Positions 3,140 through 7,229 of a stretch of DNA of 64,000 nt are shown piece after piece. The stretch is from Savitreella phatthalungensis. Taxonomy: Eukaryota. How positions within the stretch are numbered: position 1 is the first letter of the stretch; the number at the start of each line of letters is the position of its first letter. Under the pieces are notes generated by a model. It was not told the DNA's origin. It was given only the letters and a program-made list of their open reading frames with translations, and ran no database searches. Where the stretch lies: the NCBI GenBank assembly GCA_051599415.1, contig AP039694.1:434001-498000 (forward strand), given 5' to 3'. Made by a program: the position numbers and the translations under genes.

Positions 3140-4920
3140 CTAGTGATCGACCTTGATCGTGCCTTCGACAGCTTCGAATTCCCTGAAGAATGCTTCCCAG
3201 TACTTGACGCCGAGTCCAGGGTCCTTGCTGCCAGTCGTTGCACGGATACTGTGCATCGCGAGCTGAGGGATTCCCATGTCGAGCGCGCGCATGCCTGTGG
3301 CTTTGCTGAGCATCGGTCTGTTTGTGGCGTCAGTCAATTCTGTCTTTCAAGGACTCAGATCTCTATGGCACATACCCGATCGTGCCGCCCGAAGGCTGTC
3401 CGTTGCGGATCTGGAAGAGTTGAAGCTTGGTGCCGACCTTGTCAGCAATCCGCTGGCACAGCACCTTTCCTGGTGCATCTGTTGTCATCTGTGTTACATG
3501 TCAGCATGGCTCCGCCGCAGTCGTCCTGACAAATCACATACATGAGCATTGGCGTCACACGAGATAACAGGTCCGACGTTGAGCCTCGGTGACATGTTGG
3601 GTTCGTATGCATAGGCAAACTAAAAGGAGGTTAGTCTCGGACTGTTGCGTGGACATGGCGAGCTGAATAGGGAGGGCCGCACGTTCGGGTTGACTGCGTG
3701 AATGACCTAGAACATGGGCGTCAGCAAATCTTTAAAACTCACGTTTGGGTTAACGGCGTGCTTTACATCGGCAGAAATGAAGAATGACTTTGCGTAAGTC
3801 TGGGTGACCTTGTTGCCGAGGCCAGCGTTGCTTGGCTTGAGCACATCAACGATCCGTTCGACCACGGATTGCAGGAAGTTGCCGCCGGCGCCCTGACGAA
3901 GGCCCGAGCCAACTTCTTCGTCGTCTGCCAGGAATATCATGCTGATCGTCCCGGACTTGGCAAGGAATTCCTTGTCAGCTGTCGCCCGCAGCAGTGCCTC
4001 CGCAGCTGCGTAAGAGCATAGCTTGTCGTCACAGCGCGGCACAGACAGAAGCTCACGCTCCAGGCCGAAAGGCTGAGCAGCCTGATAATCAAACAGCTCC
4101 AGCTCAATGTCCTTGATCGCTTCAACCTCGACACCGAGCTGCTTAGCGACTGCCTTGAGCAAGCGTGGTGAGTGGTTTGACTGTGGATTGTTGAGGGCGT
4201 CCTTTGCTGTCAGTGCGCTGAATTGCTTCTCAAGTTCCTGTTCAAGTCCAATGATCGGGGTCATGTTGGTCTCCTTATCGAATGGACCGTTCGCGATGCT
4301 GCCAAAGTGTGGCGCGAGTGAAGGAATTTTGGCGACAGGATAAGGTAGGCGGACGAGTTTCTGAACGATGTCGTCTCCTTCCGAAACCATCACTCGCCCA
4401 GCTAGACCAAGATCGCGGTCCCACCAGGTCATGTTGTCGGCGCCCTATCATCGTTAGTCTCAGTCGCTAAAATTCCGATTGGAACAAGGAGAGATCATAC
4501 TGCGTAAGGTGCGACGCCAAGCTGCAGAAATCCGCAATTGGACGCCTTCGAGACGGGCTTGACGCGAAGGGTGAGGGCATCAATGTGTGTACCGATTAGC
4601 GCGACACCATTTCCTGCTTCGTATTTGCCCCCGAGAGCAAAGGCGATCAGCGAGGAGTAGTTACGAGTGAGAAAATACTTGCCACCTGGCTTGAGCTGCT
4701 TTGCCCAGTCATCCCGCTCGGTCAAGTGGACATACCCAGCGGCCTTGAGCGTCTTTGCATAGTGCTCAACAGCGTGGAAGACAGTTGGAGCGTCGTTCAA
4801 GAAATCGCAGAATCCTTGGCCATAGCCATCGTATTCGTCAGCAGCAGCACAGTCTGCTGTGGCCGGAACTGAGACGTCTACTGCGCCAAACTCGTCGTCG
4901 TACTTGATATTGACACGCAT
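3140..4920 (-). CDS. M18-family metallo-aminopeptidase (vacuolar aminopeptidase I/Lap4- or aspartyl aminopeptidase-like), spliced
   Basis: Motifs GTHIDAL, TWWDRDLGLAGRV, RCDDKLC, DDEEVGS, SADVxHAVNPN, SGGTIGP, DMGIPQLAMHSIR. Exons 4920-4501, 4444-3767 (or -3743), micro-exon 3706-3683, 3619-3542, 3488-3376, 3317-3140. All introns GT..AG with branch points. Confidence 0.93.
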
Positions 4921-5216
4921 TGGGGTCTAATGAAGAAGCAGAGTGGGGAAATTTAAAGATGTCTGAGTTAATGAGCGACTTGCCAGTGTCGTCTGTAGGA
5001 TGTGGGCCTCGGAGTGTGGATGATTGTTTCTTAAGTGAGCGTCTATACGTGCTTGAGTGTGTGTGCGTATGCGTGTCTCTGTCTTGACGGTTGCCCCACG
5101 CTCATACGTGACTCCGGGTATCTCAGTCGATAGATGGGATGGGGGGATGGTTGGAGGATACTGTGTACGTACGGGTAGGCGTAGATGTTGATCTGTGTGA
5201 TTGATTGAACATGATC

Positions 5217-5238
5217 GATTGATTGATTGATTGATTGA
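5217..5238. repeat. (GATT)n tetranucleotide microsatellite in the divergent promoter
   Basis: gattgattgattgattgattga read directly. Confidence 0.85.
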
Positions 5239-5534
5239 ATTTGATCCATCAATCAATGCATTCCAGCGTCATTCACCAAACACTCACTTGACTTCACTCG
5301 AAAGTCACTCACACTGTAGATGACATCGAAGATACCGCTGCCAGCAAACATACAAAAGTTCCGAAAATAGAGGCGATAAGCGAGTAAATCAAAGTTTCTA
5401 TACGCTCTGCAGCTCCTGAAGCTGTATCAAGAGACAGCCAGGGCTCTCGGCTGTCCCTCAGCGTGTCTCGGCGCTTGACCTAACTTCGCTCGTCTGAACA
5501 GGCGGATCTTGAGGTCTGTGTCTGATTCGCAGCC

Positions 5535-7229
5535 ATGTCAGACACAGCCTCAACCGAGGTCAAACGATCAAGCTTCCTTGTAGGGCGACCTTTGCTTTAC
5601 TTCACATCATGCTTCGTATCTCTGGGTTGTTTCCTTTTCGGCTTCGATCAAGGAGTCATGTCGGCGCTGATCCCAAATCCCTGGTTCAAAGACTTCTTTG
5701 ATCAACCGTCATCGACGGAGATAGGCACAATGGTGTCGGTGCTCGAGATTGGTGCGCTTATTTCCTCGCTGGCTGTGGGTCGAATCGGCGATATTCTCGG
5801 CAGAAAGAGGACGATTTTCTGGGGAGCAGTGATCTTTGTGATCGGCGGGGCATTACAGACATTCTGCCCAACCTACAACGTCATGATCGCAGGTCGAGTC
5901 GTCGCCGGCTTAGGTGTCGGCATGCTTTCTACCATCGTTCCAGTCTACCAATCGGAGATATCTCCTGCACACGACCGCGGACGATTGGCATGTATCGAGT
6001 TTACCGGCAATATCATCGGCTACGCCTCCAGTGTCTGGATCGACTACGCATGCTCGTACATCGAGAGCGACTACAGCTGGAGACTACCACTTCTGATGCA
6101 GTGTGTGATGGGCGGTATCCTTGCGATCGGCGCGACCGTCATCCCAGAGTCACCACGGTGGCTGCTTGACCACAATCACGACGAGGAAGGTATGATCGTG
6201 TTGGCGAATTTCTATGGCGGTGGCGATCCACGAAATGACATGGCGCGGTCTGAGTTCCGCGACATCAAAGAGACTGTGATCCAGATGCATGCAGAAGGTG
6301 AACGCTCATACGCTGAGATGTTTAGAAGGTATAAAACGCGGTTGTTCATCGCTATGTCTTCCCAGGCATTCGCTCAGCTGAACGGCATTAACGTCATCTC
6401 CTACTACTGCCCGCTTGTCTTCGAGCAGGCTGGCTGGGTAGGACGCGATGCGATCCTGATGACTGGATTCAATGGTCTCATCTACGTGGCATCGACCATC
6501 CTCCCGTGGTATGTGATCGACTCTTGGGGTCGACGGCCAATTCTTCTATCGGGTGCCATCATCATGTGCATTTCTCTTTCAGCCATTGCATACTTCATCA
6601 AGATCGATGTCTCATACACGCCCACTTTCGTTGTCGGCCTCGTAATCATCTACAACGCTGCGTTCGGCTACAGTTGGGGCCCGGTTCCTTGGCTGTTGCC
6701 TTCCGAGGTGCTGCCATTGAGCGTGCGCGCACGCGGAGCTTCCCTCTCGACCGCTGTCAATTGGTTGACAAATTGGTACATTGGCATCTCGACGCCGATT
6801 CTGCAGGAACGAATCGGATTCTGGCTCTACATCATCTTGGCTCTATCGTGCGCCGTCAGCGCTGTCGTCGTGGCGATGTTCTACCCAGAGACAAAAGGCC
6901 TCGCGCTTGAGGACATGGACGACTTGTTTGGTGACCAGTCAGTCGCACCTACTCCTCGCGGCGCAGAATCGCAGTCTTTGTTCGATGCAGGTGAGCGCGA
7001 TTCTGAGGCCAACGTCACCGGCGCTGCCAATCAACTAGGCGCAGCAGAGCCTCCTGACGACGAGCAGATCCTCAAATACTTGCAAGAGCAGTCCCGCAGG
7101 ACAGATCTGTCTGCTATCTTCGACAGGCTCCGAGGCGTCCAACAGCAGCAGCAGTCAACTGACAACTCCGATGGACCAGCGTCACCAGACGAGCGATCTT
7201 CTTTGCTTGCACACGACCGCAGCAAGTGA
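5535..7229 (+). CDS. MFS sugar porter family transporter
   Basis: FGFDQG, GDILGRK, VPVYQSEISP, PESPRWL, QLNGINVISYY, DSWGRR, WGPVPW, PETKG. Confidence 0.95.
   Translation: MSDTASTEVKRSSFLVGRPLLYFTSCFVSLGCFLFGFDQGVMSALIPNPWFKDFFDQPSSTEIGTMVSVLEIGALISSLAVGRIGDILGRKRTIFWGAVIFVIGGALQTFCPTYNVMIAGRVVAGLGVGMLSTIVPVYQSEISPAHDRGRLACIEFTGNIIGYASSVWIDYACSYIESDYSWRLPLLMQCVMGGILAIGATVIPESPRWLLDHNHDEEGMIVLANFYGGGDPRNDMARSEFRDIKETVIQMHAEGERSYAEMFRRYKTRLFIAMSSQAFAQLNGINVISYYCPLVFEQAGWVGRDAILMTGFNGLIYVASTILPWYVIDSWGRRPILLSGAIIMCISLSAIAYFIKIDVSYTPTFVVGLVIIYNAAFGYSWGPVPWLLPSEVLPLSVRARGASLSTAVNWLTNWYIGISTPILQERIGFWLYIILALSCAVSAVVVAMFYPETKGLALEDMDDLFGDQSVAPTPRGAESQSLFDAGERDSEANVTGAANQLGAAEPPDDEQILKYLQEQSRRTDLSAIFDRLRGVQQQQQSTDNSDGPASPDERSSLLAHDRSK

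Follow-up and report, generated by a model that had tools for sequence, protein, structure and literature searches.

Can a yeast with tiny introns exchange one residue beside the active-site metal of an enzyme by choosing between two homologous coding segments? This question is raised by an M18 aminopeptidase I gene (vacuolar, Ape1/Lap4-type) of Savitreella phatthalungensis, a leaf yeast of the order Taphrinales. The gene lies on the minus strand of a 64,000-nucleotide (nt) stretch of contig AP039694.1 (assembly GCA_051599415.1, positions 434,001 to 498,000), the whole of which we call the window and within which all positions below are counted. It has six exons and five introns (Table 1), and at its most conserved motif it carries two copies of a 24-nt segment, 60 nt apart on the minus strand. 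Copy 1 encodes VKHAVNPN and copy 2 encodes VIHAVNPN, so that the copies differ in having Lys (K) or Ile (I) at one place, referred to as the K/I place. We give somewhat better than an even chance to either/or use of the two copies, which would yield a K form or an I form of the enzyme of equal length. A conserved substitution of homologous exon segments is probably real.

The copies have 18 of 24 nt and seven of eight residues in common. Four of the six differences between them are synonymous third positions, and the other two make AAG (K) versus ATT (I). Two splicing models were drawn up. Model I uses the donor GTAAAG at 3766, removes introns of 60 and 63 nt and corresponds to the NCBI model; model K uses the donor GTGAGT at 3742 and removes one intron of 123 nt (3742-3620). 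Both models give a coding sequence (CDS) of 1491 nt and a protein of 496 residues, with residue 368 as the sole difference. The predicted tryptic peptides are ..SFFISADVK followed by HAVNPNFAYAYEPNMSPR for the K form, and SFFISADVIHAVNPNFAYAYEPNMSPR for the I form, which reads SADVIHAVNPNF across the segment. Both copies in one mRNA would require the removal of a 36-nt intron (3742-3707) and would give a product of 504 residues.

An initial annotation of the window had described the copies, donors, branch points and acceptors with their coordinates. It had also noted the 18/24 nt identity with four synonymous differences and two making K/I, as well as two in-frame products of equal length, and had called the intron needed to include both copies shorter than any other of the gene. 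Set against the window sequence, all of these points held, with products of 496 residues each and other introns of 53-63 nt. Its term 'duplicated micro-exon' needs amending. It is right for copy 2, which is a 24-nt micro-exon in model I, and not for copy 1, which forms the last 24 nt of exon 2 (702 nt). Because of this position of copy 1, the event would combine an alternative 5' splice site with a cassette micro-exon and would not be a choice between two cassette exons.

Intron statistics were taken from the five introns of the aminopeptidase gene alone. The distance from donor to branch A is 41-52 nt in its other introns, and that from branch A to the 3' end is 9-14 nt. For the first branch A (3721), the distance is 46 nt to the upstream donor and 22 nt to the downstream one. 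An ab initio intron survey of the window was set aside, its two versions having returned 854 and 97 candidates that were plainly mostly false positives.

Membership of family M18 is clear from Pfam PF02127 (Peptidase_M18), which matched exon 1 with 102.1 bits (E-value 4.1e-29) and exon 2 with 190 bits (E-value 8.4e-56) against a curated cut-off of 24 bits. The spliced model I is identical, letter for letter, to P0001, an NCBI hypothetical protein of 496 residues from S. phatthalungensis. The solved M18 chains 5jm6, 5jm9, 5jh9 and 4r8f matched over the full length (E-values 1.3e-130 to 6.3e-110), with 5jm6 at the top (1.3e-130) and chains of yeast Ape1 at about 1e-110. The blocks GTHID, CDDK, DDEEVG, SADVIH and AMHS of P0001 are kept relative to 5jm6 and 5jm9, as read from the printed alignments. 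These blocks presumably provide the individual metal ligands of the H.D.E.D.H signature, and separately the Asp-His spacing of +3 fits Asp346/His349 of hDNPEP. In P0001 this Asp is residue 366, the His is residue 369 and the K/I residue is 368.

The position 28 residues after this Asp was used to place the enzyme within the family. By hand count, P0001 has Ser at Asp366+28 (GPVIS), where the DNPEP-like P0243 has Lys (GTVIK). Lys at Asp+28 marks the aspartyl-specific M18 subgroup (DNPEP/Ape4 type) and is absent from P0001; with Ser instead of Lys, P0001 belongs to the Lap4/Ape1 type. As in yeast Ape1/Lap4 and the solved chains 5jm6, 5jm9, 5jh9 and 4r8f, the HxD, DDK, DEE, SADxxH and MHS blocks are kept. 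P0001 and yeast Ape1 differ at the K/I place, where Ape1 has N (SADVNH). Ser at Asp+28 is also the state of Lap4 (PMC3472314; here and below, published work is cited for the sections used).

We examined whether the similarity of the copies exceeds what the window offers by chance. An identity of 18/24 nt within 24-150 nt was found at 18 loci in the window, 13 of them without short-period repeats, and is not rare (20 mononucleotide shuffles gave a mean of 1.2 loci). Nucleotide similarity alone is weak evidence, and the peptide level is stronger. Across all six frames of the window, the two copies were the sole in-frame pair of 8-residue peptides with at least 7/8 identity within 8-50 codons; ten shuffles yielded 3 such pairs altogether.

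The pattern of differences speaks to the history of the segment. Outside the K/I codon, all four differences fall at third positions, and 4 of 4 fourfold-degenerate sites differ. The seven shared codons agree at all 14 of their first and second positions (P = 0.0058 if differences were scattered at random over 21 sites). The duplicated unit does not extend into the introns, where the local alignment score of 12 was equalled by 315 of 1000 shuffles. Differences at third positions only, combined with unlike flanking intron parts, look like the outcome of an old duplication, with both coding parts held by selection on the peptide and without recent gene conversion. The initial annotation had proposed that both copies are under coding constraint; the substitution pattern bears this out, and the relatives described below strengthen it.

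The duplicated stretch was also compared with other assemblies. A Logan assembly of the probable source run (X1, record 2) reproduced 3589-4950 with 0 differences; since it draws on the same reads, it does not count as independent support. The metagenome contig X7, from another study, is 194 nt long and spans 3697-3890 with three differences, one in the spacer (3734) and two in copy 1 (3743 and 3752, both synonymous third positions); its depth is low (<5), so errors are possible. Outside the duplicated segment, the Logan assembly of the probable source run is broken at 3589-3618, where its contigs overlap by 30 nt. Branching off at this point is a contig of 56 nt and depth 5 with 26 unrelated letters, probably a minor graph branch.

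Homologues were collected by three protein searches (exon 2, longer proteins; the C-terminal part of P0001; exon 2, similar length), giving 282 proteins. The motif [S..]xD-x-x-H-xx-[NH..]P-x stands at fixed spacing in 266 of these, and none has an insertion there. Among the 249 homologues that run at least 60 residues past the motif, K was never found two places after the Asp. The residues at this place were I (116), T (80), A (20), C (12), E (9), S (7), N (2) and D, V and G (1 each). K was present in 11 proteins, all of them truncated gene calls from related contigs (P0002-4 and P0218-225). These fragments are 65-78% identical to exon 2, and 11 of 11 carry SADVKHA[V/L][N/H]PN and end 2-42 residues later. 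The V/L and N/H replacements in their K copy are conservative and occur in canonical homologues too. Directly after PN, nine fragments read VS, one VC and one VR, compatible with GTNAGY, GTNTGY and GTNAGR donors, respectively. The GTG AGT of the window likewise reads VS, and Ser may also be encoded by TCN.

We then placed the fragments in a tree of 25 hand-chosen rows (all 13 close-group members, P0226 and 11 more distant homologues), each reduced to its exon 2 part and ending with the motif. Savitreella, P0005 of Protomyces lactucae-debilis and the 11 fragments formed one clade (support 97/88). On the evidence of these proteins, the entire clade has conserved an open, peptide-like K copy with a donor-like codon pair after it. 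A purely intronic sequence would not be expected to outlast such divergence, and we therefore take the K copy to be part of the translated sequence of at least some mRNAs. Two pattern scans of metagenome contigs for the K copy plus GT, with Val as the fifth codon and then with any NTN, gave 0 matches.

A second copy can be traced in relatives as well. Fragment P0219, which is 74% identical to P0001 over 242 residues, has a 42-residue read-through tail into the intron. In frame +1 this tail decodes to [ADGV][IT][HLPQR][ADEGV][ADGV][NS][LPQR][NS], then a codon starting GT or GC. The decoded tail begins 43 nt past the K copy and fits VIHAVNPN or VTHAVNPN plus a donor, and K is ruled out at the second place. 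Compatibility of this kind was found at 2 of 191,548 positions among the window's own peptides. In a comparison by hand, the shifted readings GHSRSQPER (P0219) and GHPRRQPEC (window) agreed at 8 of 8 first codon positions. The determinable base differences between P0219 and copy 2 of the window, also compared by hand, were third positions only, with second positions left free by the decoding. The spacer peptides of P0219 and the window have little in common past the first few residues.

In Protomyces, the annotated P. lactucae-debilis orthologue P0005 reads SADDIHAVNPNF (DIHAVNPN), and P0223, its sister in the tree (100/100 support), reads SADVKHALNPNVS (K copy). The two proteins are identical at 306 of 370 positions (83%) without gaps. 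Their segments differ at three places (V/D, K/I and L/V) and are therefore not one DNA stretch read twice. By this bracketing, I in P0005 and K in P0223, we infer that the Protomyces lineage has both copies.

Splice signals were sought in the fragments by back-translation. In P0220, P0224 and P0225 the sole CTRAY-compatible site lies 10-11 nt before an in-frame stop, which is 33, 36 and 21 nt past the K copy, respectively. The corresponding in-frame stop of the window is the acceptor TAG, 14 nt after branch A. This suggests a 3' splice site at the same place in these three relatives.

We propose that two 5' splice sites 24 nt apart compete. When GTGAGT (3742) is used, the first branch A (3721), 22 nt off, would be too near to pair with it, and GTGAGT would pair with the distal branch site (3631) and the acceptor at 3620. 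The resulting 123-nt intron would take out copy 2 and leave the K form. When GTAAAG (3766) is used, it would pair with the branch site 46 nt off and the acceptor at 3707, so that a 60-nt intron takes out copy 1. The 24-nt micro-exon formed by copy 2 would then be joined via the normal 63-nt intron, and the product would be the I form. The duplication would be older than the split of Savitreella from the Protomyces-side lineages, and both copies would have been kept by selection on the peptide.

The intron geometry is observed, and from it we infer mutual exclusion and the actual use of the junctions. One copy per mRNA is favoured over both because of this geometry, with 22 nt from donor to branch A compared with 41-52 nt. 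If the in-frame stop of P0225 is the acceptor, its donor-to-branch distance would be 11 nt. Since both copies keep the His and NPN, each would take the canonical place in some molecules. A protein with both copies would have an 8-residue insertion, which is without precedent among the 266 fixed-spacing homologues.

Several points weigh against either/or splicing. Its support consists of genomic and peptide sequence rather than transcripts. Both donors of the I form are off-consensus, GTAAAG (no G at +5) and GTGCGG, and the three unambiguous introns of the gene have the donors GTATGA, GTATGT and GTATGT. By site strength alone, the K form should be expected to dominate. Among the relatives, no back-translation of the P0219 spacer yields a CTRAY or YTRAY branch motif, and P0218 has no CTRAY-compatible site before its in-frame stop. 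The second copy of the relatives was read back from peptides, which leave second codon positions free. The I copy of Protomyces comes from the annotation alone, and the K copy is attributed to it from the sister lineage. Taphrinomycotina such as fission yeast may be able to splice introns of about 36 nt, and for this reason steric exclusion is plausible here, not proven. RNA folding gave no special structure (-30.3 kcal/mol, z = +0.64; equalled or surpassed by 149 of 200 shuffles). In the predicted fold of 3735-3766, UAAAGC of the upstream donor region pairs with GUUUUA past the downstream donor, forming a small hairpin that encloses copy 1.

Other readings of the locus would use the same signals differently. 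The gene might make the K form only, with GTGAGT always joined to the distal acceptor, copy 2 an intronic relic and the NCBI/JGI models drawn by homology with I-type proteins. This would agree with GTGAGT being the sole consensus donor among the three candidates, with the K copy and a donor-like GTN codon being kept in 11 of 11 related fragments and with the P0219 spacer having no canonical branch motif before the second copy. We nevertheless regard it as unlikely. An old relic should decay, yet copy 2 keeps 7 of 7 shared residues with 4 of 4 fourfold sites changed, and a compatible second copy persists in P0219 despite only 74% identity. In the spacer, a branch motif 46 nt from the upstream donor and a TAG stand at suitable places, and P0220, P0224 and P0225 have compatible splice signals. 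Moreover, with K in 0 of 249 full-length homologues, an enzyme with K only would be unique in the family. Constant inclusion of both copies, by removal of the 36-nt intron 3742-3707, would produce the 504-residue protein with the tandem peptide VKHAVNPNVIHAVNPN. It would account for coding constraint on each copy, it would join the strong donor to the spacer's good branch site and acceptor, and very short introns occur in Taphrinomycotina. The 22 nt between donor and branch A, compared with 41-52 nt elsewhere in the gene, and an equivalent intron of only 21 nt in P0225 if the stop is the acceptor, make it quite improbable in our judgement. The motif spacing is also fixed in 266 of 282 homologues with no insertion, and one chain has room for one canonical segment, yet both copies keep H and NPN.

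That the I form is the only product, as annotated, with copy 1 intronic and kept for its donor and other splicing signals, we consider very unlikely. An intron would not keep an open, peptide-like stretch in 11 of 11 lineages at 65-78% identity, and a conserved consensus donor 24 nt inside an intron would compete with the weak true donor. These points outweigh for us the use of the I copy by the NCBI model here and by the named Protomyces model, the predominance of I at the K/I place (116 of 249 homologues) and the five uniform introns of 53-63 nt that model I yields. Chance similarity or an assembly artefact is hardly credible. Short-range identities of 18/24 nt are indeed not rare in the window (18 loci, or 13 without short-period repeats), but this pair is the only one of its kind in six frames at the peptide level, and the copies sit on the gene's most conserved motif with GT after each. 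The stretch is reproduced without differences in the Logan assembly, 3697-3890 is spanned by a metagenome contig from another study, and the K copy recurs in 11 relatives.

Known splicing systems offer partial parallels for the substitution that we favour. Alternative splicing in fungi is dominated by intron retention. Steric exclusion, with a donor too near the next branch point, is the mechanism of alpha-tropomyosin exons 2/3, and the donor here, 22 nt from the next branch site, would fit this type of mutual exclusion. Animals are well known to substitute tandemly duplicated exons for one another (PMC3228551, PMC9013439, PMC9741552). As in animal mutually exclusive exons, the segments here are homologous, of equal length, in the same frame and adjacent, and the isoforms would be identical outside the swapped region. 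An old duplication with both copies apparently under purifying selection is a further likeness. Unlike these exons, the present case has an early-diverging ascomycete yeast as host, a unit of 24 nt and a net change of one residue. Copy 1 closes a 702-nt exon and is no cassette, and the case is known here from sequence alone. Measured by the features given for mutually exclusive exons in the sections of PMC3228551 used here, the copies agree in length, homology and frame. As for similarity of splice sites, GT follows each copy; copy 1 has no acceptor of its own, and the 5' boundaries are not equivalent.

For fungi, the relevant sections of PMC6176087 describe mutually exclusive exons as almost absent (<0.2%) and perhaps not relevant there. 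In Schizophyllum, loosely defined exclusive exon pairs are reported, mostly in untranslated regions (PMC5034255). Mean intron lengths are 78 nt in Taphrina deformans and 81 nt in fission yeast (PMC3648899, Table 1). Alternative 5' splice sites by which yeasts diversify their proteins (PMC7491326) are comparable in that one gene of an intron-poor fungus gives two proteins by splice-site choice, as predicted here. Unlike those cases, in which part of a protein is added, removed or retargeted, homologous segments would be swapped here. In the open-access literature we found neither a fungal homologous-segment substitution nor an M18 splice isoform.

What the K/I exchange may do was considered from the position of the residue. 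The metal ligands of hDNPEP are His94, Asp264, Glu302, Asp346 and His440, with Asp346 binding Zn2, and mutation of His349, a residue of the P1 pocket, makes substrate binding weaker (PMC3472314). The same source proposes that Lys374 (Asp346+28) sets the preference for acidic residues and gives Ser at this place in yeast Lap4. Because the Asp-His spacing matches Asp346/His349 of hDNPEP, the Asp of SAD is assigned as the presumed Zn2 ligand. The account of hDNPEP in PMC3472314 also supports the initial annotation, which had named this Asp as a metal ligand and the following His as lining the active site. Residue 368 would thus sit two places after the zinc-binding Asp and one before the P1-pocket His.

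At the K/I place, the members of a paralogous M18 group (P0006, P0008-P0013, P0016, P0018 and P0031) carry Glu or Asp (SADVEHAVNPNF..GLKPRLN), and P0018, a member of this group, is a second M18 protein of Protomyces lactucae-debilis. Several versions of the residue seem to exist in the clade, across paralogues and across the duplicated segment. Charge at this place is evidently tolerated, to judge from these proteins, and varies between lineages, since the paralogous group including P0018 has Glu there.

Lys could conceivably alter specificity, metal binding or the pH profile. It might make the K form favour acidic N-termini, standing in for the pocket Lys of the aspartyl-specific M18 enzymes, and K and I forms could be mixed within one particle. 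The fullest version of this proposal is a switch kept since before the Taphrinales radiation, yielding two dodecameric enzymes with different substrate preference and made exclusive by intron geometry alone; we put it forward as a doubtful possibility.

If this fullest version is true, fungi would have in it their first conserved case of homologous exons being exchanged at the active site of an enzyme. Either/or use of the copies, on the catalytic motif of a well-studied enzyme family, would mean that fungi with tiny introns are able to tune an active site through homologous-segment substitution, and the locus, with its 24-nt units and 36-nt spacer, would be a minimal natural system for steric exclusion in splicing. 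There is also a consequence for annotation. In this clade homology-guided models pick the I copy and a signal-based reading favours the K copy; with choices that differ in this way, one isoform would be missing from every annotation examined here.

Table 1. Features of the M18 aminopeptidase I gene and its two alternative segments, in window positions.
Feature	Position	Strand	Details
CDS span, M18 aminopeptidase I	3140..4920	-	ATG at 4920, stop 3142-3140
Exon 1, 420 nt	4501..4920	-	Part of the model reproducing P0001
Intron 1, 56 nt	4445..4500	-	Donor GTATGA; CTAAC branch A 47 nt from donor, 9 nt from 3' end
Exon 2, part common to both models	3767..4444	-	Ends ..ISAD; Asp is the presumed Zn2 ligand
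Copy 1, K segment, GTAAAGCACGCCGTTAACCCAAAC, VKHAVNPN	3743..3766	-	3' end of exon 2 (model K); first 24 nt of the 60-nt intron (model I)
Upstream weak donor GTAAAG	3761..3766	-	First six bases of copy 1
Consensus donor GTGAGT	3737..3742	-	Directly after copy 1
Rest of the 36-nt spacer	3707..3736	-	GCTGAC 3725-3720, branch A 3721; acceptor TAG 3709-3707
Copy 2, I segment, GTCATTCACGCAGTCAACCCGAAC, VIHAVNPN	3683..3706	-	24-nt micro-exon in model I; intronic in model K
Distal intron, 63 nt	3620..3682	-	Donor GTGCGG 3682-3677; ACTAAC 3635-3630, branch A 3631; TAG 3622-3620
Exon after the distal intron	3542..3619	-	Starts FAYAYEPNMSPRLNVGPVIS..; contains Ser at Asp+28
Intron, 53 nt, donor GTATGT	3489..3541	-	Spliced model
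Exon	3376..3488	-	Spliced model
Intron, 58 nt, donor GTATGT	3318..3375	-	Spliced model
Last exon	3140..3317	-	Spliced model

The neighbourhood of the gene was inspected as well. On one side, at 809-2494 of the minus strand, a single long open reading frame encodes a NIPA magnesium transporter (PF05653, E-value 1.6e-61). On the other side, a sugar/MFS transporter is encoded by a single long open reading frame at 5526-7229 of the plus strand (PF00083, E-value 9e-103). The aminopeptidase gene with its five introns stands out among these otherwise intron-poor neighbours. Upstream of it, at 5195-5250 on the minus strand, lies a (CAAT)n-type microsatellite (..caatcaatcaatcaatcaatcg..), in what is presumably the promoter or 5' leader of the aminopeptidase gene; it also surfaced among the short-range repeats in the nucleotide repeat scan. 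Between the aminopeptidase and NIPA-type transporter genes, 2640-2790 of the minus strand is occupied by a CACA/CATA-rich low-complexity tract and a purine run, agaagaaaaagaagaaaaagaaaag.

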